Positions 14,970-45,164 of a DNA stretch of 53,779 nt are shown here, piece by piece. Made by a program: the position numbers and the translations under genes. The stretch spans positions 1-53,779 of the forward strand of contig DASROP010000147.1 of assembly GCA_035646835.1 (NCBI GenBank), given 5' to 3'. The notes below the pieces were generated by a model. That model was not told where the DNA came from and searched no databases. It was given only the letters and a program-made list of their open reading frames with translations. Positions within the stretch are counted from its first letter, which is position 1. Each line of letters starts with the position of its first letter. The DNA is from Actinomycetales bacterium (GTDB lineage Bacteria > Actinomycetota > Actinomycetes > Actinomycetales > DASROP01).

Positions 14970-14999
14970 TCAAGGACTGCGTGCTCGGTTCCCGGGAAC
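14966..14999. repeat. Half-copy of the type B TGATCA repeat followed by a 12-bp palindrome
   Basis: ttgatcaaggactgcgtgc (14966-14984) differs at 2 of 19 positions from ttgatcaaggactccatgc (42888-42906). It contains the glcF stop TGA. gttcccgggaac (14988-14999) is a perfect palindrome. Confidence 0.5.
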
Positions 15000-25100: not shown

Positions 25101-25425
25101 CGTACAGCGTGGCCTGGTAGACGACGTCGATGCCGGAGCGCATCGCCTCCAGCGTCTGCCGCTCGGCCTCCTGCCGCTCGGTGTGCCCGAAGACGGTGTC
25201 GACCTCGACGACGGAGAGCCCGTCGCCCTTGAGCTTCGCGAGGTAGTCCGCCTCGTGGGCCAGGCCCTTCGCGAAGATCAGCTGCAGCGCCTCGTCGTCA
25301 CCCTGGTCCGGCTTGGCCAGGCCGCGGTGGGCCACGGCGAGGTCGAGGGTCGTGAGGTGCGCGCACGCGAGGTGCTTGGTCAGGTCGGTCGGGCTGAGCA
25401 CCAGCCGACCGTCCACGTCTCTCAT
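22147..25425 (-). CDS. RecB-like (TM0106-type) nuclease / RNase H-like exonuclease domain fused to an SF1 (DNA2/UPF1-like) helicase
   Basis: PD-(D/E)xK signature GQADFLLKV...YEVADTKLA, Cys cluster CSQCRWLGRC, and DEDD-like VYLDFEGDPW. Helicase motifs are Walker A GPPGTGKT, Walker B VLVVDEAGQ, VDKFQGKEAPVVI and LNVAVSRAK. ATG at 25425 with a GGGAGCGGG RBS. Confidence 0.82.
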   Translation of the reverse strand: MRDVDGRLVLSPTDLTKHLACAHLTTLDLAVAHRGLAKPDQGDDEALQLIFAKGLAHEADYLAKLKGDGLSVVEVDTVFGHTERQEAERQTLEAMRSGIDVVYQATLYDGMWGGQADFLLKVDRPSDLGAWSYEVADTKLARRLKVPALLQMATYAERLAVLQGTDPEHLYVVTGDGVSHPWRLFDVASYARRARTRLRAAVTAPAPTEPVPVAHCSQCRWLGRCQGQWRADDDLSLVAFMRADHRERLREQGVRTVEQLAGSDPLSLEGIGSGTRERMVQQAALQVRERQTRGPHYALLDPEPRRGLLRLPPPSDGDVYLDFEGDPWADGGEGRDYLAGLGDRAGAFTGLWAHDPDAERRLVIDLVDDLTARWRADPGMHVYHYAPYETTALKRMTARHGVRETELDQLLRAERFVDLYAVVRQGLRISKESYSIKKMEAFYWEEVRGAGDVADAMSSVIAYERWMVEHDDETLPQIEAYNRTDVESTLALHDWLEERRSELEGVHGPQPRPDNEPFDPAEPLSDAEVAEIELAERLRDGGHPLLADLVQWHRREARPGWWDVFRLEDLDDDELTDDGSAIGRLGAPVEVGEIKQSRLWRYEFPPQDCKIGVGKTALDVDTHDSAGTVEEIDAVEGYVVLRLGKKREPLTSRGFGPPGPIDDRALRGAVHRLGTSVLAGEQPLGRNVLDRRVPAATELAPGESSEAAVIRLGRSLSGEVLAVQGPPGTGKTTIGAALIRALLDEGLRVGVVAQSHEVIGHLLRSVARPALQRCNDVDDFCGAPGVEQAGNDDVVTRLGDGSARLVGGTAWLWSREDMAGSVDVLVVDEAGQFSLANALAVSQAATSMVLLGDPQQLSQPSQALHPDGAGVSVLEHLLDGHDTVPADRGVFLATTWRMHPAIAGFVSDLSYEGRLSSAPGRERQRIEGTTSIEGSGLRFVPVEHVGRAAASEEECDAVRRLVDGLVGARWRDHEGTEHTMGPDDVLVVAPYNSHVARLKAALPGVRVGTVDKFQGKEAPVVIYTTASSSADDAPRGVDFLYDTHRLNVAVSRAKCLAVLVGSPRLLDAAVHSPEQLRKVNALCRFVEVAGPG

Positions 25426-25495
25426 CCCGCTCCCCCCTCGGTCGTCGTGACCCCAGTCTGGGCCACCCCACCGACACCGCTGGCTGGGAGACGGG

Positions 25496-26242
25496 TCAGA
25501 GCCAGGTGGGCAGCTTCGGGAGAGCCACGTCGGCACCCGGACGACGGACGGTCAGCAGGCTGCCGTCCGCGCGGCCCACCAGCCACCCCAGCACATCGGT
25601 CGCCGACCCGGTGACGACGACGGGGACCGCGTCGTCCGGGCCGAGCACCCACCGCCGGTCGCGGTCGGTCGGCTCGAGCGTCACCGCGGGGCACCCGTCG
25701 CGCCCGGACAGGAAGCCGGAGGCATCGTCGAGCAGCAGGTCGACCACTCCGACCGGCAGGTCCGCGACCACGGCCCCGGCGGCGAGGTCGACGGCGTGCA
25801 GCCACACCTCCCGGATCCGCATCCACGGGATGTCGGACGCCGGCATGTCGCGGCCCAGCGCACTGCGCACGCGGGCCCGTCGGCCGGCGTCGTCCAGGGC
25901 GTCGAGCGCCTCGTCGAGCTCTGCCGCCGTCCGCACCAGGTCGTCACGCAGCCGGTCCGCGGGCAACGTGGCCGACACCTCGATCTCGGCGGCACGCTCC
26001 GAGCGGCTGGCGTACATCGGAGTCTCGACACCGGTCCGGGCCCACGCGACGAGTCGCCCGAGTGCCTCGGCGTTGCGGGCGAGGTGCCCGACGACGTGCG
26101 CCCGGCTCCAGCCCGGCAGCCCGCTCGGCTCGGCCAGCTGCCCGTCGTCCAGCCGATCCACGGCAGCCAGCAGGAACGCCGTCCCCTCCCTCATCCACGG
26201 CAACGTGACCGTGACGTCGTCGCGCCGTCCCGCCGTCCCCAT
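25496..26242 (-). CDS. Maleylpyruvate isomerase family mycothiol-dependent enzyme (DinB/MDMPI fold)
   Basis: ...GWSRAHVVGHLARNAEAL... is typical of TIGR03083-type proteins. The start is taken at MGTAGRRDD (26242); this choice is uncertain. Confidence 0.72.
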   Translation of the reverse strand: MGTAGRRDDVTVTLPWMREGTAFLLAAVDRLDDGQLAEPSGLPGWSRAHVVGHLARNAEALGRLVAWARTGVETPMYASRSERAAEIEVSATLPADRLRDDLVRTAAELDEALDALDDAGRRARVRSALGRDMPASDIPWMRIREVWLHAVDLAAGAVVADLPVGVVDLLLDDASGFLSGRDGCPAVTLEPTDRDRRWVLGPDDAVPVVVTGSATDVLGWLVGRADGSLLTVRRPGADVALPKLPTWL

Positions 26243-31513: not shown

Positions 31514-31924
31514 TCACCAGACGGCGGTGACGCTGCGGTCCGTTCGTGCGTAACGGTGGATGAGGCGGTCCTTGGTGAGCAGCGGCACGCCGTGCCGCCG
31601 CGCGCTGGCGTAGAGGAAGCGGTCCGCAGGGTCGCCGTGGAAGCCGGGCAGCTCCGCGGCCGCGACGGCCACGGCTGCTGTCAGCTCGGCGAGCACCACC
31701 CGGTCGGCCGCGAACAGGTCGCGGGTCCAGGCCGCCGTCGGCCGGTCGAGGCGGACCCGGCCGCGCGCCACCAGCATGGCGATCTCCCAGCAGCTGATCG
31801 GGCTCACCAGGAGGGTGCGCGCGGTGGCCAGGTGGTCGCGGGCCGGTTCCGACAGCCGGTCGGATCCGGCTTGCCACCAGAGCAGCGCGTGCGTGTCCAG
31901 CAGGACCGGGTCAGCGCTCTGCAC
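31514..31924 (-). CDS. PIN-domain toxin (VapC family)
   Basis: VLLDTHALLWW...ISCWEIAML...DPADRFLYASA is the pattern of PIN toxins paired with Phd/YefM antitoxins. 14-nt overlap with the upstream antitoxin. Confidence 0.82.
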   Translation of the reverse strand: MQSADPVLLDTHALLWWQAGSDRLSEPARDHLATARTLLVSPISCWEIAMLVARGRVRLDRPTAAWTRDLFAADRVVLAELTAAVAVAAAELPGFHGDPADRFLYASARRHGVPLLTKDRLIHRYARTDRSVTAVW

Positions 31925-32141
31925 CCCAGGCCTCTCCCGTCGCGTAGTACGCCTCGTCGTCCTCGGCGAGCAGGGTCACGGACCCGAGGGTCGGCGCGGG
32001 CTCGTCGTCCAGGGGAACCAGCCTCGCGACGGGCCTCCCGCGTTTGGTGACGACGATGCTCGTGCGAGAGCGCGCGACCTCGTCGATGAGGGCGAGGCAG
32101 CGCGCCTTGAAGATGCTGGCCTGGATCCAGTTCTCCTCCAC
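31911..32141 (-). CDS. Phd/YefM family antitoxin
   Basis: ...ASIFKARCLALIDEVARSRTSIVVTKRGRPVARLVPL..., 76 aa. Confidence 0.8.
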   Translation of the reverse strand: MEENWIQASIFKARCLALIDEVARSRTSIVVTKRGRPVARLVPLDDEPAPTLGSVTLLAEDDEAYYATGEAWGAER

Positions 32142-32220: not shown

Positions 32221-32288
32221 TCCGACCCCTGTGATTATCTACCGCCCAGCCGGTGGACGGCGACGGAGCGGGAGGAGGCAGCCAGGAC

Positions 32289-33851
32289 ATGTCGGAGACC
32301 ACCTCGTCGCTACGGCCGTTCACCCACCTGGCGGTGGAGAAAACGACGGCGTACCGCGACGTGCTCGACACGTTCGCGGCGGCCAAGGCGCGCTTCACGG
32401 TGCACCTGCGCCCCGAGGACGTCGCGGACGATATGCGAGAACCACCAGCTGACCACGAGCTGACCCTCCTGCTCGACCAGCTGGTCACCTGGGGCAACCT
32501 GCGGGCCGACCCCGACACGAGCCGGGTGACGACGGTCGAGGACTTCCACCGCGCCCGTTACCTGTACTCGCTCACGCGTGACGGCGACGCGGTGGAGGCG
32601 GCGCTGGTCGCCTACGATGCGGCCCTCGGCCAGCGCGGAGAGCTGCAGGCCGTGGCGCTGGCCGACATCCGCGACCAGCTGCGGGGCTTGGACACCCTCG
32701 ACCCCGCCGATGACGCAAAGGCGCACGCGGGGCTGATCCTGCTTACCGACCGGTTCGCCGGCCTGGCAGCCAATGCGCAGGCGTTCATGTCGTCGGTGCA
32801 GCGGTCGGTCGACCTCGCGGACGCGGACGTCGAGGTGTTCCTGGCGTACAAGGACCGCCTGGTGGAGTACCTCCAGCGGTTCCTGCGGGACCTCGTGGTG
32901 GCCGGGGCCGACATCGCGGCCCAGCTCGACGCGCTCGAGCCGGACGTCGACGCCCTCCTGCTGGCCGCGGCCCGGCGGGAGGCGCGGGACGCGGCACCCG
33001 GCGAGGACGCCGGCACGGAGTCGGCCGACGAGAGCGTCGCGCTGCGGGTGCGGCAGTGGCGGTCACGCTGGGCGGGGTTGCGGCACTGGTTCATCGGCGA
33101 CCGTCACCACCCCTCGCAGTCCGCGCTGCTGCGAGACCGCGCGCGAGCCGCCGTCCCCGCCCTGCTGACCGCGGCGGCCGCGCTGCACGACCGGCGGTCC
33201 GGGCGCTCGGACCGGTCCGCCGACTTCCGCAGGCTCGCCCTGTGGTTCGCCCAGGCCCCCGACGACACGAGCTGCCACCGGATCTGGAGGGCCGCCTTCG
33301 GCCTCGCGCCGGCGCGGCACCTCACGGTGGACGTGGAGACGCTGGACGCACGGGAGCAGACCATGGTGCCGCCGTCCACCCCCTGGTCGCAGGCTCCACC
33401 GGTGGTGATCACCCCGCGGCTCCGCCGCACCGGGCGGATCGAGCGACGCGGCAAGCCGGCTTCGGTGACCGACCGCTCGGCGCAGCGCACGCACCTGGCG
33501 GCCCTGGCGGCCGCCGAGCACGAGCAGGTCGAGGCTGCGCGGCGCCGGCTGGCCACGGGGCGCCCGACCAGGCTCTCCGAGCTCGACGAGCTCGACCCGG
33601 ACTCCTTCGGGCTTTTCCTGTCGCTGCTCGGCGACGCACTGTCGGCTCGGGTCCCGGGCGCCGCGACGGTCGAGACGACCACCAGCGACGGCTCGCTCGC
33701 GGTGCGCCTGTCTCCCACGCACGACGGTCGTCGGGCCGCCGTCCGCACCCCCGGTGGGGTGCTGCGCGGGCCGGACCACGTCCTGACGGTGCACGACGTC
33801 ACCGGCGACGCACGGCGTGACGACGACCTCCGTGAAGGAGCCGCGTCGTGA
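32289..33851 (+). CDS. jetA: Wadjet JetA (TIGR02677 / DUF2397 family, kleisin-like)
   Basis: LRPFTHLAVEKTTAYRDVLDTFAAAKARFTVHLRPEDV matches the N-terminal pattern of TIGR02677 proteins as I remember it. It is the first gene of a four-gene overlapping operon. Confidence 0.82.
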   Translation: MSETTSSLRPFTHLAVEKTTAYRDVLDTFAAAKARFTVHLRPEDVADDMREPPADHELTLLLDQLVTWGNLRADPDTSRVTTVEDFHRARYLYSLTRDGDAVEAALVAYDAALGQRGELQAVALADIRDQLRGLDTLDPADDAKAHAGLILLTDRFAGLAANAQAFMSSVQRSVDLADADVEVFLAYKDRLVEYLQRFLRDLVVAGADIAAQLDALEPDVDALLLAAARREARDAAPGEDAGTESADESVALRVRQWRSRWAGLRHWFIGDRHHPSQSALLRDRARAAVPALLTAAAALHDRRSGRSDRSADFRRLALWFAQAPDDTSCHRIWRAAFGLAPARHLTVDVETLDAREQTMVPPSTPWSQAPPVVITPRLRRTGRIERRGKPASVTDRSAQRTHLAALAAAEHEQVEAARRRLATGRPTRLSELDELDPDSFGLFLSLLGDALSARVPGAATVETTTSDGSLAVRLSPTHDGRRAAVRTPGGVLRGPDHVLTVHDVTGDARRDDDLREGAAS

Positions 33852-35044
33852 CCGACGGGCTGACCGACGCGCTGGAGGCCAGCCGGCTCGCCGAGCGGCG
33901 GCGGGCCGCCCGGGCGCTGCTCCGCAGGCCCCTGCTGCCCAGCACCGACCCGGCGTTCGGCGCCGTGAAGCGACAGTCCGTGTGGCTGCGGGACTGGTTC
34001 GCACGGGAGACGGGCTGGCACGTTCAGGTGGACCCCGAGACGGTGCGGCTGCGCAAGCGGCCGGCTGACCTGGACGACGGGACGCGTCCCGCGATGTCGG
34101 CCCCGGGCCAGCCGTTGCGCCGCCGCCGCTACGTGCTGCTCTGCCTGGCGCTCGCCGCGCTCGAACGGTCGGACGCCCAGACCACACTCGGCCGGCTCGC
34201 GGAGTCGGTGCTCGCAGGCGCGGCCGACCCCGACCTGGGGGCTGCCGGGGTCCGGCTCGACCTCGACACGCGCGAGGACCGGGCCGACCTGGTCGCTGCG
34301 GTGCGGGTGCTGCTCGCGCTCGGCGTGCTGCGACGCGTCGCGGGTGACGAGACGGGATACGTCCACGGCCCCGGCGACGCGCTCTACGACGTGGACCGCA
34401 GGGTCCTCTCCGGGCTGCTGGTGACCGGCCGCGGGCCGTCCACGGTCGACGCGACGGGTCTCGACGAGCGTCTGGCCCTGGCAGCAGACGAGCTGGTCGC
34501 CGATACCGACGAGGCCCGGACCCGCGCAGTCCGCCACCGGCTGACCCGACGCCTGCTGGACGACCCCGTCGTGTACTACTCCGACCTGACGGACGACGAG
34601 ACGGCCTACCTCTCGTCGCAGCGCGCCGCCGTCTTGCGCCGCATCCGCGAAGCGACGGGACTGGTGGAGGAGGTGCGCGCCGAGGGCATCGCCCTGGTCG
34701 ATCCCGCGGGACGCGACGCGCTCAGCGACGTGACGATGCCCGAGGAGGGCACCGACGGGCACGTCACCCTGCTCCTGGCCGAGCACCTGGCCGCGTTCGA
34801 CGGCGCCGCGGTGCCGCTGGCTGCGCTGGAGAGCCACGCAGCCGCGCTCGCGGTCGAGCACCGCACGCACTGGCGCAAGGGGTCCGACGAACCCGCCGCG
34901 GTCGCCGAGCTGACCGCCAGGGCGGTCGACCGTCTGGCGGCGCTGCGGCTGGCCGACCGGGACGACGACGGGGTGCGCGCGCTGCCCGCGCTCGCCCGGT
35001 TCCGCGTCGCCGCGGCCGTCGTCCCGGAGGAAGCACTCGCGTGA
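33848..35044 (+). CDS. jetB: Wadjet JetB (TIGR02678 / DUF2398 family, KITE-like)
   Basis: ARALLRRPLLPSTDPAFGAVKRQSVWLRDWFARETGWHVQVDPETVRLRKRP matches the TIGR02678 pattern. GTGA overlap with jetA. Confidence 0.82.
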   Translation: MTDGLTDALEASRLAERRRAARALLRRPLLPSTDPAFGAVKRQSVWLRDWFARETGWHVQVDPETVRLRKRPADLDDGTRPAMSAPGQPLRRRRYVLLCLALAALERSDAQTTLGRLAESVLAGAADPDLGAAGVRLDLDTREDRADLVAAVRVLLALGVLRRVAGDETGYVHGPGDALYDVDRRVLSGLLVTGRGPSTVDATGLDERLALAADELVADTDEARTRAVRHRLTRRLLDDPVVYYSDLTDDETAYLSSQRAAVLRRIREATGLVEEVRAEGIALVDPAGRDALSDVTMPEEGTDGHVTLLLAEHLAAFDGAAVPLAALESHAAALAVEHRTHWRKGSDEPAAVAELTARAVDRLAALRLADRDDDGVRALPALARFRVAAAVVPEEALA

Positions 35045-38000
35045 CCGCGACCCGTTGGCAGCCGGTACGCGCCGGCCTGGTGGACCTCTTCTACTACGAC
35101 GCGGAGGAGTTCGCGTTCCGCGACGGCCACCTCCTGCTGCGCGGCAACAACGGGACCGGCAAGTCGAAGGTGCTCGCGCTGCTGCTGCCTTTCCTGCTGG
35201 AGGGCAACACGGCATCGCACCGGGTCGAACCGGACGGCGACCCCGGCAAGCGGATGGAGTGGAACCTGCTGCTCGGCGGCCGGCACCCGCACAGCGAGCG
35301 CACCGGCTACGCCTGGTGTGAGTTCGGTCGCCGCGACGCCGCGGGGCAACAGCACCGCCTGACGATCGGCGCCGGGCTGAAGGCGGTCACGGGACGAACC
35401 GGGGTGACGAGCTGGTTCTTCGTCACCGACCAGGGGGTCGGGGACGACCTGCACCTGGTCGGCCCCGACCGCAGGGTCCTGACCCGTGAGCGGCTGAGCG
35501 AGGCGATCGGCGAGCGCGGCACCGTTCACCGGGAGGCGGAGCGCTACCGCCGCGCGGTCAACGAGGCGCTGTTCGACCTCTCCCCCGACCGCTACGACGC
35601 CCTGGTGACCCTGCTGGTGCAGCTGCGGCAGCCCTCGCTGTCCAAGCGCCCCGACGAGCGCCGCCTCTCGGCCGCGCTGACCGAGGCGCTGCCGCCGCTG
35701 GACGACGCCGTGGTCGTGGACGTCGCCGACGCCTTCCGGAGCCTGGAGGAGGAGCGGCTGGCCCTGGCGGCGCACCGGGAGGCACGGGACGCCGCGGCAG
35801 CGTTCGCGACGACATACGGCGCTTACGCCCGCATCGCGTCCCGCCGCAGGGCCGCCGAGCCACGCACCGCGCAGTCACGGTACGAGGAGACGGGGCGTCG
35901 GCTGACCGCAGCGCGCGACGCACTGACCAGGGCCCGCGAGGACGAGCAGCGGGCCACGGCAGCACAGCAGGACGTCGAGCGGTCGCGTGTCGTCGCGGCC
36001 GAGCACGAGCGGGTGCTGATCTCCAGTCCCGAGATGCGCTCGGCCGAGGACCTCCGGCGTGCGGAGCAGGACGTGGTCGACGCCGGTGGGCGGGCCACGG
36101 TCGCGAGGGCCGAGGCCGAGACCGCCACCGACGACGTCGCACGGCAGACCAAGCGGACGGCGTCCGCGACCCGGCGCCACGACGACGCGGTCGAGGCGGC
36201 GGGCGGCCTCGGTGCCGACGCGCAGCGGCAGGCGTCGCAGGCGCGTGTCCCCACGGCGGACCTGCACGAGCCGGACCGCGGCCAGGTCGAGCGTGACGTG
36301 GACACGACGCTGCGGGCCGTCGAGCAGCTCAGGCAGCTGGTGGACCGTGCCGACCGCCGGCGGGTCGAGCACACCGACGCGCAGCGCCGCCGGGAGGAGT
36401 CGGCGCAGGCCGCCGATGCCGCCGTCGAGCAGCTCTCGCAGGCTCGCGCCCAGGTTGCCGCGTCCGGCGAGGCCCTGGTCTCGGCCGCGCGCGGCTGGCT
36501 GGACGGTGCGACGGCACTGCGGTCGGTCGTCCCCGGCGCGGTCGGCCCCGAGGACCCGGTGGAGGCCCTCGGCGGCTGGGTCGAGACGCTGGCGGGCCGC
36601 TACCCGCTCGCCGCCTTCGCCGAGACCGCCGGCCGCGCCGCCGCCGACCTGCTGGGGCGCCGTGACGCGGGGCTCCAGGCCGGCGAGAGGGCACTGGGCG
36701 TCCAGCGCGCCGTGATCGTCGAGGAGCGGGCCGAGCTCGAGGCCGGGGTCGACGTCGTCCCCGACCCCTCCCCGACCCGCGACCACCCGTCACGCCGTGA
36801 CCGCGCTGGCGCACCGCTGTGGCGGCTGGTCGACTTCGCCGACGACACCGACCCCGCCGCCCGGGCGGGGGTCGAGGCCGCGCTCGAAGCGGCAGGGCTG
36901 CTCGACGCCTGGGTCACCCCGACCGGTGAGCTGCTGGACGCCGACGACGCCGTCGTGGCCACGGCCGTGCCGGTAGAGCGCAACCTGGGGACGACGCTGC
37001 GGGTGGCCGTCGACCGGGGCGACACGCAGTCGGCCGCCGTGCCGGACGACGTGGTGGGCGCCGTCCTGTCCGGCATCGGCCTCGGGCCCGGCGACGCACC
37101 CACCTGGGTGTCGACCGACGGGCGGTACCGGGTCGGGTCCCTGACCGGCCGCTGGCGCAAGGACGAGGCGCGCTACATCGGCGCCGGTACCCGGGAGCGC
37201 ACGCGGCGGGACCGTCTCGCCGAGCTGGCGGCCGAGCTGGAGAGCGTGGACGCGCGGCTGACGACCGTGGCCGGCGACCGCGCAGCGGTCGCCGTGCAGC
37301 TCGCGGCCGTCGAGGCCGAGCTCGCCGCGGTGCCCGACGACGGTCACCTGCGGGGGGCGCACGCGACGGTCAGCGAGCGGGTCACCTTGCGCGCCCGCGC
37401 CGCCGAGCGGCTCACCCGCGACGAGACCGCCGAAGCCGCGGCCCGCGAGCAGCTGACGGCCGCGGAGACCGAGCGGAACCGAGCGGCGGCAGAGCGCGGC
37501 CTGCCTGGCGAGCGGGACGCGCTGGACGCCGTCGCCCGGGCCCTGGAGGACTACCGGCGGACGCTGGCTCAGCTGTGGCCCGCGCTGTCGGCGCGGGATG
37601 CCGCCGGAGCCGCCCTGGCCGAGGCCGAGGAAGACCTGGGTCGGGCGCGGCACGAGCTCGGGCGCCGCCGGGAGGTCACCGGCGAGGTCGCGGCTGTCGA
37701 GCACCGGGCCGCCGCGCACCGTGACGGCCTGCGCTCGACCGTCGGCGCCGCCGTCGCCGACCTGGAGCGGAGGCTGGCCGAGGTCCAGGCCGAGCTAGAC
37801 CGCCTGTCGCGTGCGACCGAGGAGCTCACGCAGCGACGCCTGGACCTGGCCAGAGCCGTCGGCGACGCCGAGGGCCGCGAGCAGGAGCTGGCCGAACAGC
37901 TCCAGCGGGTCACCGACACGCGTGCCGGGGCCACCGAACGGCTGCGCGCCTTCGCGCGGACGGGGCTGCTGGCGGCCGCCGTCCCGGACCTCGAGATCCC

Positions 38001-39093
38001 CGACCCCGACTCGGAGTGGGCACCGACGCCGACGGTCGTCCTAGCCCGGTCGGTGGAGGCAGCGCTGGCCGACGTCCGCGAGGACGACGACGCCTGGCAG
38101 CGCGCCACGCGCCAGGTCACCGAGGGCCTGGCCGGCCTCGGCGAGGTGCTCTCACGCTCCGGCAACGCCGTCTCGCACATCCCGGGTGACGACGGGGTCG
38201 TCGTCACCACCAGCTTCCGCAACCGCGACCTGAGCGTCGGGCAGCTGACGGCCGCGCTGAACGACGAGCTCACCGAGCGCGAGCGTGTCCTGTCCGCGCA
38301 CGAGCGAACGGTGCTGGAGAACCACCTGGTCGACGAGGTCGCGGCGCGGCTTGCCGAGCTGATCCGGGGCGCCGAGGCACAGGTCGAGCGGATGAACACC
38401 GAGCTGTCGCAACGACCGACGAGCACCGGCATGCGGCTCCGGTTCGAGTGGACCCCCGCGGACGACGGCCCCGCCGGCCTGGCCGAGGCGCGTGGCCGGC
38501 TGCTGCGTCAGACCAGCGACGCGTGGAGCGAGCCCGACCGGGAAGCCGTCGGAGACTTCCTGCAGGCGCAGATCGCGGCGGTCCGCGCCCGCGACGAGGG
38601 CGGCACGTGGAGCGAGCATCTCAGCGCGGCGCTGGACTACCGGGCGTGGCACCGGTTCGCCGTCCAGCGTTATGCCGAGGGCCGCTGGCGGCCGGCGAGC
38701 GGCCCGGCGTCCGGCGGCGAGCGGGTGCTGGCCGCGACCATCCCCCTGTTCGCCGCGGCCGCGTCCCACTACGCCTCGGCCGGAAACCCGCACGCCCCAC
38801 GGCTCGTCCTGCTCGACGAGGCCTTCGCCGGCGTGGACGACGACAGCCGGGCGAAGTGCCTCGGGCTGCTGTCGGAGTTCGACCTCGACTACGTCCTGAC
38901 GAGCGAGCGGGAGTGGGGCTGCTACCCGACGGTGCCGGGTCTGGCCATCGCCCACCTCTCCCGTCGCGACGGGATCGACGCCGTCCTCGTCTCCCGCTGG
39001 GAGTGGGACGGCACCCGGCGCACTAGGGCCGACGAGCCGACCCGGGCTGTGGCGGCGAGGGCGAGCCCGGCGGACGACGGCCTGTTCGCGTGA
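35041..39093 (+). CDS. jetC: Wadjet JetC (TIGR02680, SMC-like ATPase)
   Basis: 1350 aa. Walker A GNNGTGKSK near the N-terminus. A long Ala/Glu/Arg-rich coiled-coil middle. Signature-like SGGERV and Walker B RLVLLDEAFAGVDD near the C-terminus. GTGA overlap with jetB. Confidence 0.9.
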   Translation: MTATRWQPVRAGLVDLFYYDAEEFAFRDGHLLLRGNNGTGKSKVLALLLPFLLEGNTASHRVEPDGDPGKRMEWNLLLGGRHPHSERTGYAWCEFGRRDAAGQQHRLTIGAGLKAVTGRTGVTSWFFVTDQGVGDDLHLVGPDRRVLTRERLSEAIGERGTVHREAERYRRAVNEALFDLSPDRYDALVTLLVQLRQPSLSKRPDERRLSAALTEALPPLDDAVVVDVADAFRSLEEERLALAAHREARDAAAAFATTYGAYARIASRRRAAEPRTAQSRYEETGRRLTAARDALTRAREDEQRATAAQQDVERSRVVAAEHERVLISSPEMRSAEDLRRAEQDVVDAGGRATVARAEAETATDDVARQTKRTASATRRHDDAVEAAGGLGADAQRQASQARVPTADLHEPDRGQVERDVDTTLRAVEQLRQLVDRADRRRVEHTDAQRRREESAQAADAAVEQLSQARAQVAASGEALVSAARGWLDGATALRSVVPGAVGPEDPVEALGGWVETLAGRYPLAAFAETAGRAAADLLGRRDAGLQAGERALGVQRAVIVEERAELEAGVDVVPDPSPTRDHPSRRDRAGAPLWRLVDFADDTDPAARAGVEAALEAAGLLDAWVTPTGELLDADDAVVATAVPVERNLGTTLRVAVDRGDTQSAAVPDDVVGAVLSGIGLGPGDAPTWVSTDGRYRVGSLTGRWRKDEARYIGAGTRERTRRDRLAELAAELESVDARLTTVAGDRAAVAVQLAAVEAELAAVPDDGHLRGAHATVSERVTLRARAAERLTRDETAEAAAREQLTAAETERNRAAAERGLPGERDALDAVARALEDYRRTLAQLWPALSARDAAGAALAEAEEDLGRARHELGRRREVTGEVAAVEHRAAAHRDGLRSTVGAAVADLERRLAEVQAELDRLSRATEELTQRRLDLARAVGDAEGREQELAEQLQRVTDTRAGATERLRAFARTGLLAAAVPDLEIPDPDSEWAPTPTVVLARSVEAALADVREDDDAWQRATRQVTEGLAGLGEVLSRSGNAVSHIPGDDGVVVTTSFRNRDLSVGQLTAALNDELTERERVLSAHERTVLENHLVDEVAARLAELIRGAEAQVERMNTELSQRPTSTGMRLRFEWTPADDGPAGLAEARGRLLRQTSDAWSEPDREAVGDFLQAQIAAVRARDEGGTWSEHLSAALDYRAWHRFAVQRYAEGRWRPASGPASGGERVLAATIPLFAAAASHYASAGNPHAPRLVLLDEAFAGVDDDSRAKCLGLLSEFDLDYVLTSEREWGCYPTVPGLAIAHLSRRDGIDAVLVSRWEWDGTRRTRADEPTRAVAARASPADDGLFA

Positions 39094-40358
39094 GCGGTGC
39101 CCACCCCCCGGCGCCGGTCGACCTCCCGAAGCTGCAACGGCTTCTCGGCGACGAGACCCTGGCGTGGCTGGTGCACCGGGTCCGCGACCGGCGCGAGCGA
39201 GGGTGGCCGCCGGCGGATCGGCTGAGGCTGGCCGAACCGACCGCCGCCCAGCGCGAGTCGCTGATCGCGCTGCTCGGCCGGCGTCCGCGGTCTTCGGGTG
39301 CACTGTCGGTCCGGGTCGGCGAGCTCGACGCCGTGCTCCGCGGGGCGGGGGCGGCGCCGGACCTCCAGACCGCCGTCGTCGCCCTGACCGGTCCCCTGCG
39401 CGACCGTGCCGGTGAGCTGGTTGCCCAGGCGTCAGCGTGGGAGCGGGTGCGGTCGCGCCTGCTCGAGGCGGTGGGACCACGACCGGCCCTGCAGCCCTGG
39501 GCTCAGACCGTGTGGGCGACGGGACTGCTGCGCCGCCTGGCCGGCACACCGTCCCGCGCGTTGGAGCTGCTCGGGCAGCTGGACGCCGTGCTGAGGGAGC
39601 TGCCCGCCGGCGACCCGGTGCTGCGCAGCCGCCTGGCGACGACGGCACTGCACGACGCCCACGGGCTCGACGACGACCGGCCACTGACGACGCTGGTCCT
39701 CGGCGCCGCGGCCGCGCTCGGGGACGTGGCGCCGGGCGAGGGCGCCGCGGCCAGGCGCCGCGTCTGGGCGGGTGTCAGGGTCGGGGTCGGTGACCTGAGC
39801 GCGCCGGCGCTCACGCTGGGGCTGCCCGGTGACGGGGTGTCGGGCCTGGGTCGGGTGCTCGACGCGTGGCGCCGTGCGGGCGAGCCGGTTCACCTGACGC
39901 TGCGACAGTTGACCACCGGGCCAGGACGGTTACCCCTCACGGGCACCGACGTGTACGTCTGCGAGAACCCGTCGGTGGTGGCGATCGCCGCGGACGTCCT
40001 CGGGGCCGGCTGCAGGCCGCTGGTCTGCACGCACGGCCAGCCGAGCTCTGCGGTCGCGGCCGTGCTCGACCTCATGGTGACCAGCGGCGCACGCCTGCAC
40101 TATCACGGCGACTTCGACTGGGGTGGTCTACGGATCGCCGTCCGGGTCGTCGACCGGTGGCGCGCCGAGCCCTGGCGGTACGAGCGCGAGCAGTACGAGG
40201 CGGCCGTGGCTGCCGGCCACGGCGGGCGGGCGCTCACCGACTCCTCCCGCGCGCAGGCGCCCTGGTCGCCGGGGCTCGTGACGTCAATGCGCACGAACGG
40301 CCGCGCCGTCGAGGAGGAGGCCGTCGTCGCCGACCTGCTCGATGACCTGGCCCGCTGA
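39090..40358 (+). CDS. jetD: Wadjet JetD (TIGR02679, DUF3323 + DUF2399 Toprim nuclease)
   Basis: Toprim Glu in VYVCENPSVV and DxD in HYHGDFDWGGLRIA. 422 aa. GTGA overlap with jetC. Confidence 0.88.
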   Translation: MSGAHPPAPVDLPKLQRLLGDETLAWLVHRVRDRRERGWPPADRLRLAEPTAAQRESLIALLGRRPRSSGALSVRVGELDAVLRGAGAAPDLQTAVVALTGPLRDRAGELVAQASAWERVRSRLLEAVGPRPALQPWAQTVWATGLLRRLAGTPSRALELLGQLDAVLRELPAGDPVLRSRLATTALHDAHGLDDDRPLTTLVLGAAAALGDVAPGEGAAARRRVWAGVRVGVGDLSAPALTLGLPGDGVSGLGRVLDAWRRAGEPVHLTLRQLTTGPGRLPLTGTDVYVCENPSVVAIAADVLGAGCRPLVCTHGQPSSAVAAVLDLMVTSGARLHYHGDFDWGGLRIAVRVVDRWRAEPWRYEREQYEAAVAAGHGGRALTDSSRAQAPWSPGLVTSMRTNGRAVEEEAVVADLLDDLAR

Positions 40359-40391: not shown

Positions 40392-40799
40392 TCAGGCGCC
40401 GATCACTGCCCAGCCGAGCGATCGGGCCGCCTGCGCCTGCCGCGCGTCGAACGTCACCAGACGGACGACGGGCGCCCCGACGCGCTGGGCCGCGGCCAGG
40501 TGCAGCGCATCGAGACTCCGGGCACCGGTCAGCTCGGCCAGCTCCGCGGCCGTGCGGCAGGTGATCGCGTCGAGCTGGACGACGGCGGTCCGTCGCCAGT
40601 CGCCTGCGAACGCCTCGCGAGCGGCAGCGAGTCCGACCGGATCGACCGCCAGGCGAATCGCCAGCGTCCGCCGGACCTCGACCTCGGTGTGAGCAGCGGT
40701 CACCCATTCGGGGTCGGAGGCCAGTAGTCGAGCCGCTGCCGACGAGTCGGGCTCCGCCACGTACCGCTTCACCAATGCGCTGCTGTCCAGGTACTGCAC
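40392..40799 (-). CDS. PIN-domain toxin (VapC family)
   Basis: YLDSSALVKRYV (first acidic residue), ...AHTEVEV..., ...LDALHLAAA..., 135 aa. GTG start directly abuts the antitoxin stop. Confidence 0.82.
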   Translation of the reverse strand: MQYLDSSALVKRYVAEPDSSAAARLLASDPEWVTAAHTEVEVRRTLAIRLAVDPVGLAAAREAFAGDWRRTAVVQLDAITCRTAAELAELTGARSLDALHLAAAQRVGAPVVRLVTFDARQAQAARSLGWAVIGA

Positions 40800-41063
40800 C
40801 TACTCGCCCCGGTCGCCGGAGAGGATCTCGGTCGTACTCGGGCCGATCGGGGGCTGGACGGGCTCGACGGCCGCGGGCACCTCGATGGTCTCGCGCACGA
40901 TCCAGCCGTCGACGAGACCGCGGTCGACGTTGTCGCCGGCCGGCAGCGGCATCAGCACGGCGCGAGGCACCCCCCGGTCCGTCACGCGGACCAGCTCACC
41001 CCGTGACGCGCGCTCGACGTACTCGGAGAGACGTGCCTTCAGCTCGCGGATGCCGACGTCCAT
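40800..41063 (-). CDS. Phd/YefM-type antitoxin
   Basis: MDVGIRELKARLSEYVERASRGELVRVTDRGVPRAVLMPL. The ATG at 41063 is in frame within the longer listed ORF. Confidence 0.8.
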   Translation of the reverse strand: MDVGIRELKARLSEYVERASRGELVRVTDRGVPRAVLMPLPAGDNVDRGLVDGWIVRETIEVPAAVEPVQPPIGPSTTEILSGDRGE

Positions 41064-41095: not shown

Positions 41096-41554
41096 TTAGT
41101 ACGCCGGGCCGAGGGACAGACGACGCGCGAGCTCGGCGTTGTGGCGGTTGGCGAGACCGACGGCGTCGACGAGCGCCCAGATGAAGATGCCGAGCGGCAG
41201 GAAGAACAGGAAGCCCAGCGTCACGAACATGAGGAGGTAGGCGACGAACGACCCGCCGAGGAACGCCAGGCCCCGGCCGACGTGGCCGCAGTACATCTGC
41301 CCCGCACCCACCAGCAGGATCGACAGCACCGCGGCCAGGCCGCCCGACTTGCGGCCGAGGATGGCCAGGGCAGCCGCGTTCTGCGCAGACGGCGGCGGGT
41401 AGCCCTGGCCGTACGCCACGGGGACGTTGCGGGACGGCGGTGGCGGCGCCCCGTACGGCTGCACCTGTCCGTACCCGGCAGGCGCGGGCCCAGCGGTGTA
41501 GGGCTGCTGCGCCGGCTGGGCGTAGAACGGCGGCTGTTCGCCTGGTACCGACAT
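41096..41554 (-). CDS. TM2-domain-like membrane protein with a Pro/Gln/Tyr-rich N-terminus
   Basis: ...RKSGGLAAVLSILLVGAGQMYCGHVGRGLAFL...IWALVDAV resembles the TM2 domain pattern (two helices). The low-complexity N-terminal 60 aa reads PYGAPPPP.... Confidence 0.55.
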   Translation of the reverse strand: MSVPGEQPPFYAQPAQQPYTAGPAPAGYGQVQPYGAPPPPSRNVPVAYGQGYPPPSAQNAAALAILGRKSGGLAAVLSILLVGAGQMYCGHVGRGLAFLGGSFVAYLLMFVTLGFLFFLPLGIFIWALVDAVGLANRHNAELARRLSLGPAY

Positions 41555-41692: not shown

Positions 41693-42583
41693 GTGCTGTC
41701 CGAGAGCGAGGACCGGCTGCTGCGCCAGCTGGTGATGGACCGCCTCGCCGAGCGCACGGTGCACAACGGCGGCTTCGTCAGCCGGGCCGAGCTCAGCAGC
41801 TTTCCGCTCGAGGGGACCACGCGGCGGCTGATCGACACGTCGAAGGGCATCTGGAACCCGCGCGACCTGGTGGCGACGCTGACGATCGTCAGCTCGCCCG
41901 ACGGGCCCTACGAGGACCAGGACGTCGAGGGCGGCTTCTTCCGCTACGACTACCGGGCCGGTTCGGACGCCGGCGACAACACGAAGCTGCGACGCGCGGC
42001 CGAGCTCGGGCTGCCCCTGATCCTGCTGCGCAAGATCGCCACTGGCGTCTATGTCCCGGTCTTTCCGGTCTACGTCATGGACGACGACCGCTCGGCCCGG
42101 CGCTTCACCATCGCCGTGGACGAGAGCCTGAGGTTCATGCCCAAGCCGGCGGAGTGGACGGACGACCAGCGTCGCTACGCGGAGCGGCTCGTACGCCAGC
42201 GGCTGCACCAGCCGGAGTTCCGCGGGCGGGTGATCCGCGCCTACGCGACGCGGTGCACGGTGTGCTCATTGCGGCACGGCGAGCTCCTCGACGCCGCGCA
42301 CATCATCGGGGACACCGAGGTCGGCGGCCTGCCGATCGTCACCAACGGCCTGGCCATGTGCAAGATCCACCACAGCGCCTACGACGCCCGGCTGCTGGGG
42401 ATCTCCCCGGACTACAGGGTCACCATCGACTCCGACCTGCTCGCCGAGACGGACGGCCCGATGCTGCGGTACGGCATCCAGGCGATGCACGGCGGAACGT
42501 TGCAGCTGCCCGCGCGCAGGGCCGACTGGCCCGACAAGGAGCGCCTGGCAGCCAGGTTCGAGGCGTTCGGCCGATGCGCCTGA
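41693..42583 (+). CDS. HNH_2-type endonuclease with an uncharacterised ~170-aa N-terminal domain (putative modification-dependent restriction enzyme)
   Basis: C-terminal CTVCSL...LDAAHIIG...NGLAMCKIHHSAYD is the HNH_2 (PF13391-like) motif as I recall it. The N-terminal part (GIWNPRDL...FRYDYRAGSDAGDNTKLRRAAELGLPLILL) recalls DNA-reader domains fused to such nucleases. Confidence 0.75.
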   Translation: MLSESEDRLLRQLVMDRLAERTVHNGGFVSRAELSSFPLEGTTRRLIDTSKGIWNPRDLVATLTIVSSPDGPYEDQDVEGGFFRYDYRAGSDAGDNTKLRRAAELGLPLILLRKIATGVYVPVFPVYVMDDDRSARRFTIAVDESLRFMPKPAEWTDDQRRYAERLVRQRLHQPEFRGRVIRAYATRCTVCSLRHGELLDAAHIIGDTEVGGLPIVTNGLAMCKIHHSAYDARLLGISPDYRVTIDSDLLAETDGPMLRYGIQAMHGGTLQLPARRADWPDKERLAARFEAFGRCA

Positions 42584-42620: not shown

Positions 42621-42851
42621 TCAATGAGTCTCGGCGTCGCTCGAGGCCAGGAGCTCCAGGTCGAGCCGGCGGAGCCAGTCCGTCTCCATGAACTCGAGCA
42701 TCGGCGACATCTGACGGGTCGCGTAGCGGCCGGCTTCGCTCTCGTCGAGGGGAAGGACGACGTCGCGTTCGGCCGTCGTCCTGTAGCCCACGGCGATGTC
42801 CAGGTCACGAGCCGCCGCGGGGTCGATCAGTACGCTGCCGAACACCGTCAC
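42621..42851 (-). pseudogene. Short nucleotidyltransferase-like ORF (possible MNT-type remnant)
   Basis: VFGSVLIDPAAARDLDIAV resembles the GS...D.D motif of NTP_transf_2 proteins. The usual ~25 N-terminal residues are missing and there is no HEPN partner. GTG start; a stop codon lies just upstream. Confidence 0.3.
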
Positions 42852-42887
42852 ACGGCCGCCACGAGACCTAGGGTTTCAAACCCCAAG

Positions 42888-42936
42888 TTGATCAAGGACT
42901 CCATGCTCGCGAGCCGGGCATGGAGTCCTTGATCAA
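42888..42936. repeat. Type B TGATCA hairpin (18-bp perfect arms, 13-nt loop)
   Basis: ttgatcaaggactccatg (42888-42905) and catggagtccttgatcaa (42919-42936) are exact reverse complements. The hairpin lies 27 nt downstream of the NERD-helicase stop. gggtttcaaaccc (42871-42883) just beside it is also self-complementary. Confidence 0.65.
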
Positions 42937-42962
42937 CGTTGAGGGAGGGGGGTTTGACCGTC

Positions 42963-44594
42963 TCAGGTGATGCCGAGCCGGTGGGCGACACCCTCGCCGC
43001 CGATGTCGCGGATCAGCCCTGGGTCCCCGCAGACGACGAGCCGGTCGCGGGCACGGGACAGGCCGACGTACAGCTTCTCTCGGGCCCGCTCGTCGCGACC
43101 GAACCCGTTCACGGCGAGGACGACGGCCGGTCGTTCGAGCCCCTTGAAGCCGAGGACGTGCCCGTAGAAGACCTGGTCCGCGTCGTAGAAGGACTCCCAG
43201 TAGTGGCCCTGGCCTCGGGCCTGGCGTTCGACCTGCTCGGGGTGGCGCTTGCCCGTGGTCAGCAGGGCGACGTGCTCGGCCGGCCAGCCCTCCTCGAGAA
43301 GAACCTCGACCTCGTCGTCCGCCTGACCCAGCGCCTCGTCGTCCGAGCAGGCGACGAAACGCACCGGGTCGCCGTCCCCGCCGCGGTAGCGCATCTGCAT
43401 CTGGGTCAGGGACCCGAAGGTCTGGGCGATCGGGAGCGTGTTGCGGAGGTTCTCGTCCAGGAGCACCGGGACGAGCGACAGCGGCGCACGGCCCTGCCGG
43501 GCGAAGACCCTCTGGCCCTCGTCCGCGAAGACGTAGACACCACCACGCTCCTGGTCGCGCAGTGCGGACAGCAGCGCAGGCCACCAGGAGTCCGCGAAGT
43601 CCTGTGCCTCGTCGACGACGACCGCGTCGAAGAGCTGGTCGTCGGGCAGGTCGAGCGCGAGGCGGGCCATCTCGGCCGGGAGGCGTTCTTCCCAGAACCG
43701 GCTGTCGTCGTCCGAGCCGCTGGGAGCACCCCACACCTGCCCGAGCCCGTGGAAGGTGCCGACGTACGCGGGACGCTCGTGGCGTTTGAGCCCCGCCACA
43801 CGGCGACGCAGGTACTCGGCCAGGCCGCGGCTGTAGCAGGTGAGCGCGACGCGCTGGCCGGCCTTGGACAGGCGCCGGGCCTGCTCCAGGGCGAGCCAGG
43901 TCTTGCCCGAACCGGCGCCGCCGATCACCTCGACGCGTGGCACGGCCCGCAGCGCGGAGAGGATCGTCGCCTGGCGCTCGGTCATCAGGTCGACGTCCGC
44001 GGCCCGCTCGGCGATCTCGGCGATCAGGTCGCCCTGCGGCAGCATCCGGCCGCTGAGGACGTCGACCATCGTGTCCACGTCGTCCTGGGTCGCGCACGGG
44101 TTCTCGCTGCGCTGGTCGGTGACGAGGTCGTACAGCATCCCGGCGGGGCTGCCGGGCAGGTCGTCGCGGTCGAGCACCATCGCTCGCGGGCACTCCGGCC
44201 GGTCGAAGGACGGCGCGATCGCGCTGTGCGGGAAGGCGACGGCGTGGGCGAAGCGGGTGCGACGGCGTCCCCATCGCGGGTCGCGGTCGAGGTAGTCGCG
44301 GATCGCGTATTTGCACCTGCGTGCCTGGGCCACCGGGTCGAGGTGGCGGCTGTTGTTGCCCTGGCGCCAGCGCTGGCCGTCGTGGCTGATCCGGCCGCCC
44401 TTGACCTCGACGACCACGATGCCGGCGTCCGGCATCGCCACCACGACGTCGGCCTCGTGGTCGCCGTCGTCGTCGGTGATCCGCAGGTTCGCCATCAGGA
44501 CGTCGTGCGGCCTGAGGCTCTGCTTCAGCGCCTGCCACACCTGTTGCTCCGCGGCAGAGGTGAACACGGGATCGGCGGGGATGCACCGCGGCAT
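42963..44594 (-). CDS. NERD-domain nuclease fused to a UvrD/SF1-like helicase
   Basis: NERD core HEADVVVAMPDAGIVVVEVKGGRIS. Walker A GGAGSGKT, Walker B AVVVDEAQDF, and motif VI-like YVGLSRARDRLVV. Confidence 0.82.
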   Translation of the reverse strand: MPRCIPADPVFTSAAEQQVWQALKQSLRPHDVLMANLRITDDDGDHEADVVVAMPDAGIVVVEVKGGRISHDGQRWRQGNNSRHLDPVAQARRCKYAIRDYLDRDPRWGRRRTRFAHAVAFPHSAIAPSFDRPECPRAMVLDRDDLPGSPAGMLYDLVTDQRSENPCATQDDVDTMVDVLSGRMLPQGDLIAEIAERAADVDLMTERQATILSALRAVPRVEVIGGAGSGKTWLALEQARRLSKAGQRVALTCYSRGLAEYLRRRVAGLKRHERPAYVGTFHGLGQVWGAPSGSDDDSRFWEERLPAEMARLALDLPDDQLFDAVVVDEAQDFADSWWPALLSALRDQERGGVYVFADEGQRVFARQGRAPLSLVPVLLDENLRNTLPIAQTFGSLTQMQMRYRGGDGDPVRFVACSDDEALGQADDEVEVLLEEGWPAEHVALLTTGKRHPEQVERQARGQGHYWESFYDADQVFYGHVLGFKGLERPAVVLAVNGFGRDERAREKLYVGLSRARDRLVVCGDPGLIRDIGGEGVAHRLGIT

Positions 44595-44608
44595 GGTCGT
44601 CTCTCAGC

Positions 44609-45067
44609 TCACGCCACGTCGCGACCGGGCTCGGCATCGCCGGAGACCAGCTCGTCGTCGAACGGCGTCTCGCCCCCGAAGACGGCCGCCAGCATCGGGC
44701 CGAGGGCGCTGGCCTGACCTCCGACGAGGCCGCAGGTGCCTTGCAGCGACTCGCGATCGACGGCCTCGGCGGGCAGCGCGTACTCGCAGACGACCACGCC
44801 GCACGACCAGTAGACGCTGCCGAACCGGGACCGCGCGGTGACGCTGTTCAGCTCGGTCAGCAGCTTCGCCGTCCGCCTCACCCCGAGCGCGGCGTGCGCG
44901 AACACGCGGACCGCCATCGGCGACCCGAGCTCCACCGTGACCCACGCGGCCGCCGTCCCGACCCGGAACGGGTAGTCGCCGTCGTCGTCCACCACCAGCT
45001 CGTGGCGGTCCCAGATCTCCTGCAGCAGCCGCTCCACGTGCGAGCGGAACCAGACGTCCTCGGCCAT
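44609..45067 (-). CDS. YbjN-like (T3SS-chaperone-like) domain protein
   Basis: VERLLQEIW...DDDGDYPFRVGTAAAWVTV...MAVRVFAHAALGV..TAKLLTELN...MLAAVFGGETPF fits the actinobacterial YbjN-domain pattern I remember. Strong RBS AAGGGGGAG. Its stop lies 14 nt before the helicase start. Confidence 0.65.
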   Translation of the reverse strand: MAEDVWFRSHVERLLQEIWDRHELVVDDDGDYPFRVGTAAAWVTVELGSPMAVRVFAHAALGVRRTAKLLTELNSVTARSRFGSVYWSCGVVVCEYALPAEAVDRESLQGTCGLVGGQASALGPMLAAVFGGETPFDDELVSGDAEPGRDVA

Positions 45068-45125
45068 GACGCTCCCCCTTCTCGACCCTGTAGCGACCAC
45101 GATGCCACCCACCACCGACAGCCGG

Positions 45126-45164
45126 GACGGCGACGCGGCGCCACGCGGGCGCCACGTCGCCGTC
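45126..45164 (-). terminator. Possible intrinsic terminator hairpin after the lipoprotein gene
   Basis: gacggcgacg (45126-45135) / cgtcgccgtc (45155-45164) form 10-bp perfect arms with a 19-nt loop, starting 4 nt after the lipoprotein stop. There is no U-tract, so the call is weak. Confidence 0.3.

Follow-up and report, generated by a model that had tools for sequence, protein, structure and literature searches.

A TY-Chap1 chaperone-fold gene and a NERD nuclease-helicase gene form a separable two-gene module in an actinomycete: a candidate minimal variant of the ARG-centric conflict systems

Do two adjacent genes on an actinobacterial contig belong to one functional unit, and could that unit take part in conflicts with phages or other mobile elements? 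The contig (DASROP010000147.1, from an Actinomycetales bacterium; all of its 53,779 nt are called the window here) carries on its minus strand a gene for a small protein of the TY-Chap1 family, followed by a gene for a fusion of a NERD nuclease with a superfamily 1 (SF1) helicase. The two are a genuine, conserved but separable two-gene module. The best explanation of this module, which we consider about equally likely to be right or wrong, is that the pair works as one functional part of a biological-conflict (anti-phage or anti-mobile-element) system, as a minimal variant of the "ARG-centric" systems that lacks their ADP-ribosylglycohydrolase (ARG). The parts of the pair are:

45072..45080, minus strand: Shine-Dalgarno sequence AAGGGGGAG of the TY-Chap1 gene, 4 nt before the ATG at 45067 (sequence reading)
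44609..45067, minus strand: TY-Chap1 gene, 152 amino acids (aa) (PF22551; fold of the AlphaFold2 (AF2) model in Foldseek)
44595..44608, minus strand: intergenic spacer of 14 nt, containing GAGAGA (direct sequence reading)
42963..44594, minus strand: NERD nuclease/SF1 helicase fusion gene, 543 aa (Pfam, PADLOC)
44232..44555, minus strand: NERD PD-(D/E)xK nuclease domain, residues 14-121 (PF08378, E=1.4e-14)
43020..43982, minus strand: compact SF1 helicase core, residues ~205-525 (AAA_19, UvrD-helicase, UvrD_C_2)

The TY-Chap1 gene ends with a TGA stop codon (44609-44611), exactly 14 nt from the ATG of the NERD-helicase gene at 44594. The initial annotation of this DNA had described a 152-aa reading frame with a strong ribosome-binding site 14 nt ahead of a 543-aa one, and both the Shine-Dalgarno sequence and the gap can be read directly. 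To judge from the sequence, the 14-nt spacer with its GAGAGA is consistent with co-transcription and coupled translation of the two genes.

The pairing can be followed from either gene. On the helicase side, 80 genome loci were surveyed with their context within 8 kb. Plain tblastn with the window TY-Chap finds a copy directly upstream of the helicase at one of these loci alone (L077, Jiangellales, 68% identity); a profile search together with Pfam raised the number of TY-Chap-bearing loci by five, and was needed for fusion proteins of Nocardioides. In three Nocardioides species the helicase is immediately preceded, on the same strand, by a TY-Chap3/TY-Chap1 fusion gene, with or without Chap-C. 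At another locus (L005) a TY3-TY1 gene is divergent from the helicase, and in Gordonia (L045) an IS110 transposase lies between a TY3-TY1-ChapC gene and the helicase. All six of the TY-Chap-domain genes in the 80 loci are located no more than 2.5 kb from the helicase (P=0.003 for uniform placement), and five of the six no more than 700 bp from it (P=1e-4). The TY-Chap1-helicase gap is 3 nt in L077 and 25 nt in L108 and L109, and at L138 (68%) an HNH_2 gene is followed by TY-Chap1 and helicase genes that overlap by 4 nt. In the closest relative (L081, 86% identity) the helicase gene is followed by Fic and lipoprotein genes, then by TY-Chap1 (85% identical) and, at a greater distance, by HNH_2; an MmeI/Eco57I-type gene is present upstream. 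Other helicases, such as that of L139 (65%), are solo. Outside Mycobacteriaceae the distribution of the helicase is patchy and its neighbours are variable.

On the chaperone side, a metagenome scan with a TY-Chap1 alignment yields 52 loci, many of which, where no helicase is seen, are contigs too short to judge. A NERD-helicase of the window family occurs on the same strand within 1 kb at 16 of the 52, in both gene orders: TY-Chap1 comes first in L104, L106, L107, L108, L109 and L132, and the helicase comes first, with ~72 nt between the genes, in L111, L114, L115, L117, L119, L120, L121, L125, L131 and L133. On a large contig (L144) the two are convergent and 1.2 kb apart. Thus, at least five different arrangements place TY-Chap-domain genes next to the window helicase family. 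In the helicase tree the TY-linked members are dispersed, and the identity matrices of the two proteins are closely correlated (r=0.96, Mantel p=6e-4, in a test that leaves species phylogeny uncontrolled). The linkage is real but facultative, and the two genes are neighbours far above chance. Synteny in other genomes, which the initial annotation had proposed to look for, therefore stands as far as the several independent arrangements go; fixed adjacency does not, as the genes are split in L081 and at least 70 of the 80 helicase loci have no TY-Chap gene nearby.

What do the two proteins look like? All the NERD nuclease and UvrD-like helicase motifs named in the initial annotation are present in the larger one, both as Pfam matches and as residues invariant in 56 aligned homologues. 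These include D45, E47, D49, E63 and K65 of the nuclease and, in the SF1 core, Walker A (GGAGSGKT, G225-T232), Walker B (VVVDEAQD; D328/E329/Q331/D332, DExQD) and R514 of motif VI (GLSRARD); both enzymatic activities therefore appear to be under selection. One polypeptide thus carries an intact NERD nuclease and an intact SF1 ATPase/helicase, and ATPase and unwinding activities are predicted for it. The AF2 model (mean predicted local distance difference test score, pLDDT, 89.5) has an N-terminal nuclease domain, a linker (~181-210) that is conserved but of low confidence, and a compact SF1 core. Its best structural matches in Foldseek are SLFN11, SLFN14, Ighmbp2, Upf1, UvrD and Dna2; no solved structure is detectable by sequence search of the PDB. 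NERD domains can be active antiviral nucleases, RNA cutting included (ZwsA, bioRxiv 10.64898/2026.04.06.716636), and the substrate of the window helicase is therefore uncertain. The family contains 3624 homologues; members with 53-68% identity occur in Motilibacter, Sporichthyaceae, Geodermatophilaceae, Nocardioides, Gordonia and many Mycobacteriaceae. In length and architecture, TY-linked helicases do not differ from solo ones. Directly upstream of one relative, on the same strand, is an unusual gene (L001, 6132-7943) in which an Mrr_cat restriction nuclease is fused to a Serpin domain.

The smaller protein had been called YbjN-like in the initial annotation. The relationship to the YbjN fold holds, and the family is better described by PF22551, "T3SS (YopN, CesT) and YbjN peptide-binding chaperone 1" in Pfam (T3SS, type III secretion system), which matches across its full domain (E=5.5e-25); YbjN itself (PF10722) is matched weakly. 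The AF2 model (pLDDT 92) has as its top Foldseek matches 2plg, SycN/YscB, ExsC, SycE, CesT, YbjN and DR_1245, with a probability of 1.0 to SycN/YscB, ExsC, SycE, CesT and YbjN and template modelling (TM) scores up to 0.78. A PDB sequence search gives a marginal match to 2plg alone. TY-Chap1 thus has the T3SS class I chaperone/YbjN peptide-binding fold and, by analogy with these proteins, may bind an extended partner peptide as a dimer. It has in common with the T3SS class I chaperones and the YbjN family (SycE, SycN/YscB, ExsC, CesT, YbjN/AmyR, DR1245) an alpha-beta-beta-beta-alpha-beta-beta-alpha fold and a small size. However, sequence identity to them is only 10-20%, and the motif DxDGDYPFR is specific to the TY-Chap1 subfamily. 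In the alignment this motif (residues 27-35) is invariant and forms the most conserved part of the family; the AF2 model places it in the loop and strand after helix 1. The context also differs from that of T3SS chaperones, as no T3SS genes are found among the window genes called within 10 kb on either side. DR1245, a YbjN-like protein of Deinococcus, partners the SSB-like DdrB, a protein of DNA metabolism (PMC3575483).

The initial annotation did not recognise the pairing as a named system. TY-Chap1 has been defined, however, by Iyer, Burroughs, Anantharaman and Aravind (2022; PMC9503650, section 3.8) in "ARG-centric" neighbourhoods, and orthologues of both window genes are found together in such operons. 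ARG-centric systems are predicted to counter viral ADP-ribosylation (PMC9503650). Their parts are an ADP-ribosylglycohydrolase, a phosphatase, a Nudix or WYL regulator, a chaperone (TY-Chap1, 2 or 3, SseB or vWA) and ARPP, with restriction-endonuclease-fold effectors, sometimes with linked helicase genes, as optional parts (PMC9503650). The text of that paper does not name NERD, nor does it describe a TY-Chap1/NERD-helicase pair as a stand-alone unit.

Beside orthologous pairs, Pfam identifies an ARG-DSPc fusion (E=3.7e-54), NrtR (NUDIX plus NrtR_WHD), HD_4 and ARPP-1 (E=1.1e-58). In the typical layout (L114, L115, L120, L131), ARG-DSPc and ARPP-1 genes diverge from an operon that comprises NrtR, NERD-helicase, TY-Chap1 and, in some cases, HD. 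The window helicase is 47-48% identical to the helicases of L111, L114 and L120; ARG-DSPc is present at all three of these loci, NrtR at L114 and L120, and ARPP-1 at L114. Some 12 Mycolicibacterium loci likewise have ARG and NrtR genes at a distance of a few kb from the helicase, and at four loci (L091, L097, L100, L103) a TY-Chap1 of the same subfamily stands directly beside ARG-DSPc with no helicase visible. The pairing is thus already partly known, as predicted ARG-centric systems contain about half of the linked pairs.

The window differs from these systems in the absence of their ARG enzyme, phosphatase and Nudix/WYL regulator. In the whole 53.8 kb, tblastn with two ARG proteins finds no ARG, and there is no match to NrtR or to a DSPc or HD_4 phosphatase; PF03747 is not found within 10 kb on either side of the pair. 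Thus, the window pair has the chaperone part and the optional effector-helicase part of an ARG-centric system, and it has no ARG, regulator or phosphatase. Since ARG, NrtR and HD are all missing from the window, the pair can be described as an ARG-less minimal variant. The retrieved sequence around L081, L138, L109 and the three Nocardioides loci likewise lacks ARG, NrtR and HD_4; therefore, about half of the linked pairs appear to be ARG-less.

NERD-helicases also occur with a different kind of partner. The best match of the window helicase in a defence database is PADLOC PDLC03813, RTasNERD-Hel (E=1.6e-41, 141 bits, full length). This accessory belongs to the UG34 class of defence-associated reverse transcriptases (DRT), of which 7 of 17 genes are co-located with the NERD-helicase cluster (Mestre et al. 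2022). The effector architecture is the same, an N-terminal NERD domain and a C-terminal helicase, but the partner in UG34 is a reverse transcriptase, whereas that in the window has a chaperone fold. No reverse-transcriptase domain is found among the window genes within 10 kb on either side of the pair, nor in the examined contexts of the relatives. Thus, the NERD-helicase looks like a reusable effector that can be joined to varied partners. Gabija GajAB, Hachiman HamAB, Dna2 and SLFN11 likewise join a nuclease with an SF1-type helicase. Helicase motifs are the sole part that these have in common with the window protein, however, and a GajA- or HamA-type partner is absent from the window context. 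GajB profile matches are weak and partial (best E=2.6e-9, residues 205-286, ~80 residues), and no GajA (ATPase-TOPRIM) is found near the pair by PADLOC or Pfam among the genes within 10 kb on either side.

Is the neighbourhood one in which defence genes gather? A complete Wadjet type II system (JetA2, JetB2, JetC2, JetD2) occupies positions 32235-40358 of the window on the plus strand, and the end of JetD at 40358 is 2.6 kb from the helicase stop codon. A PIN and PhdYefM pair (Pfam) follows at 40392-41030. Next to the pair itself lies:

41693..42583, plus strand: HNH_2 endonuclease gene, 296 aa, convergent with the pair (PF13391; PADLOC HNH PDLC04132, E=1.8e-16)

The location given in the initial annotation, 2.6 kb from Wadjet and beside HNH and toxin-antitoxin genes, is thus borne out. 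The HNH_2 protein weakly matches an NCBIfam model of a phosphorothioated-DNA-binding restriction endonuclease; its first ~160 residues match nothing, and a sequence search of the PDB returns no match. Its homologues recur beside TY-Chap or helicase genes at L011 (81%), L081 (56%), L077 (50%), L138 (45%) and L045 (42%), with an orientation that varies between loci, and the module may include it as a third component.

Relatives of the pair are found in similar company. An independent TY-Chap1/NERD-helicase pair on a different metagenome contig (L109, 4104-5786) directly abuts a JetA (DUF2397) gene. Near other helicase relatives are MmeI/Eco57I-type and Fic genes (L081) or, adjoining the solo helicase of Motilibacter (L082), GmrSD, Z1 and DUF4420 genes together with IS481; toxin-antitoxin and Uma2 genes are present near the L077 and L138 pairs. 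A plasmid collection contains remote homologues only (28-34% identity), which serve for context and not as orthologues; these adjoin DUF1998-type and Gabija-like genes and a type III-B CRISPR locus. The sole helicase match in a phage collection (L141, MT835574.1, 6759-8396) is 45.6% identical and has no TY-Chap gene. The record is an unverified "Bacteriophage sp." from human faeces, whose fetched 15.4 kb has 72% GC, and the contig is probably of bacterial, not phage, origin. A neighbourhood rich in defence genes, as the initial annotation had noted, thus characterizes the window and its relatives alike (Wadjet, HNH_2, PIN/Phd, GmrSD, MmeI/Eco57I-type, JetA and the Mrr-Serpin fusion of L001). 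The defence role of the pair, which we infer, is supported by these neighbours in the window and near relatives.

The pair is bracketed by two hairpins:

45126..45164, minus strand: upstream hairpin, between the stop codon of a lipoprotein gene and the TY-Chap1 gene (inverted repeat; RNA fold)
42887..42937, minus strand: downstream near-perfect palindrome, 26 nt past the helicase stop codon (inverted repeat; RNA fold)

The upstream hairpin, with 17-nt arms (45126-45142 and 45148-45164), has a folding free energy (dG) of -52.2 kcal/mol and a z-score of -2.6, and it probably terminates transcription of the preceding lipoprotein gene. The downstream hairpin has 23-nt arms (42887-42909 and 42915-42937) that include a 20-bp perfect stem; its dG is -52.9 kcal/mol (z -8.0), and an equally good fold was obtained in 0 of 200 shuffles. 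It appears terminator-like, though it lacks a U-tract. Both hairpins of the operon-like layout proposed in the initial annotation are therefore recovered by inverted-repeat search and RNA folding. One arm of the downstream palindrome, TTGATCAAGGACT..., is repeated with 2 mismatches at a gene junction at 14966-14984 on the plus strand. Three matches to the arm are observed in the window, compared with a mean of 0.01 in shuffled sequences; the full hairpin is absent at 14966-14984. A sigma-70 promoter scan gives zero sites, and such a scan is uninformative for a high-GC actinobacterium. The GC content at third codon positions (GC3) of the helicase gene is 0.93, and the nearest regulators to the pair are a HisKA_3/GerE two-component pair.

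Several other genes of the window deserve mention. Downstream of the terminator-like hairpin lies a 76-aa reading frame (42621-42851, minus strand), whose motif FGS...DLDIAV resembles that of minimal nucleotidyltransferases. It has no Pfam match, and its homologues are found solely on contigs identical to the window; for this reason it was rejected as a conserved partner. The lipoprotein was likewise rejected, being common to the window and L081 only. A gene for a 152-aa membrane protein with a proline-rich N-terminus (41096-41554, minus strand) lies between the HNH and Phd/PIN genes, and a second PIN-domain gene (31514-31975, minus strand) lies just upstream of Wadjet. Farther away, an 1134-aa protein (22147-25551, minus strand) contains RNase_H_2 and an AAA_11/AAA_12 SF1 helicase. 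Its C-terminal part matches PADLOC MkoA and MkoC of Mokosh (E=3.8e-43), and these matches suggest that it may be a separate defence gene.

How might such a pair work? Under the minimal-variant explanation, the NERD-helicase would be the effector, which would translocate on nucleic acid with ATP and cut it, DNA being the likelier substrate. TY-Chap1 would be the specificity or regulatory subunit, either a sensor or an adaptor. Its ligand would be an extended peptide from a trigger protein, perhaps one of the phage or perhaps one of the host that infection has altered (for example by ADP-ribosylation), and this binding would recruit or license the nuclease-helicase. In the full systems the chaperone would serve both a repair arm, in which ARG removes ADP-ribose, and a nucleolytic arm; the window would contain the nucleolytic arm only. 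Since most helicases of the family have no TY-Chap1, the chaperone is probably not an obligate antitoxin. Because the same TY-Chap1 subfamily is also found beside ARG-phosphatase genes alone, it probably reads the trigger rather than one fixed enzyme partner. A bolder form of this proposal, which we put forward tentatively and think less probable, is that TY-Chap1 and the NERD-helicase, possibly with HNH_2, are an autonomous, unnamed anti-phage system, in which a chaperone-fold infection sensor, on capture of an extended peptide from a phage protein or from a host protein that the phage has modified, would license a translocating nuclease and could be swapped between the damage-reversing ARG arm and the nucleolytic arm.

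A number of observations weigh against a role in conflict. At least 70 of the 80 helicase loci lack any TY-Chap gene within 8 kb, and in a further relative (L140, 1489-3123; 68%) a solo helicase lies between purC and purS, where no partner gene is close to it. In L081 (9769-11952) Fic and orthologous lipoprotein genes split the pair, so that the two genes are 2.4 kb apart, both being kept; TY-Chap1 of the same subfamily also occurs alone in ordinary contexts (L145, L146). In Mycobacteriaceae the neighbours of the helicase are fixed (a DEAD-box helicase at 25 loci, CMAS at 23, DUF5994 at ~18, plus CspA). Fixed neighbours, one mark of the core-genome repair gene that the initial annotation had named as grounds for refutation, are thus found in this family, and outside it the neighbours vary. 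The helicase is 53-60% identical across actinobacterial orders, a slower evolution than is usual for defence genes. PADLOC has no model for TY-Chap1, and, as ARG, NrtR and HD are missing from the window, any link to ADP-ribosylation here must be indirect. Within the mycobacterial neighbourhoods, the DUF5994 gene lies directly 3' of the NERD-helicase on the same strand (~18 Mycobacterium loci, e.g., L018, 9790-10311). It was rejected as a divergent TY-Chap (hhalign probability 1.9%) and could be an alternative helicase partner in mycobacteria.

The fixed, housekeeping-looking neighbours in Mycobacteriaceae, the insertion into the pur operon and the high conservation of the helicase across orders would all suit a module for DNA repair or replication restart, in which the helicase would act on damaged or stalled DNA, with TY-Chap1 as its partner in assembly or handover. 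DR_1245, whose homonymous protein has the published DdrB partnership described above, is among the fold matches of TY-Chap1. We regard this explanation as unlikely, as the distribution is patchy and the neighbours are variable outside Mycobacteriaceae, the genes are repeatedly located among defence genes and inside ARG-centric conflict systems, and the nearest defence-database relative of the helicase is an accessory of a reverse-transcriptase system. A little less probable still is abortive infection of a toxin-antitoxin type, in which TY-Chap1 would bind the nuclease-helicase and keep it silent, and a phage factor that displaces or destroys the chaperone would end the silencing. In its favour, the genes are tightly coupled or overlapping, T3SS-type chaperones do hold partner peptides, and ExsC, one of the fold matches, works in a partner-switching circuit; phage-sensing toxin-antitoxin-chaperone systems offer a published analogue (cited in PMC13069673). 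However, most helicases have no adjacent TY-Chap and are thus not intrinsically dependent on a neutraliser, and members of this TY-Chap1 subfamily stand beside ARG-phosphatase genes at loci without the helicase. In addition, the identical length and architecture of TY-linked and solo helicases mean that no dedicated chaperone-binding extension is visible.

Two further explanations have very little probability. Chance adjacency of two unrelated genes in a variable island could be argued from the distance between the genes in L081, the closest relative, and from the fact that both families also occur alone. It is strongly disfavoured by the independent arrangements (at least five), by the helicase at 16 of 52 TY loci, by the positional control (P=1e-4) and by the divergence of the two proteins in step. 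It is even more improbable that the window helicase is an accessory of a UG34/DRT reverse transcriptase. The full-length RTasNERD-Hel match and the 7 of 17 UG34 genes with a NERD-helicase cluster would favour this, but a reverse-transcriptase domain is lacking within 10 kb on either side and in the contexts of the relatives, and the 141-bit match points to a related effector family in a different system.

The pair is one among many candidate defence modules. If it does protect against phages, it would open the ARG-centric systems, a large predicted class in Actinomycetota, to experiment for the first time, and T3SS-chaperone-fold proteins would be immune sensors or adaptors in bacteria without the secretion system. 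The two-gene minimal form is the simplest test construct, in which the role of the chaperone is separated from ADP-ribose chemistry. For the NERD-helicase family, which is widespread in actinobacteria, including environmental mycobacteria, a hypothesis at the level of function is gained.

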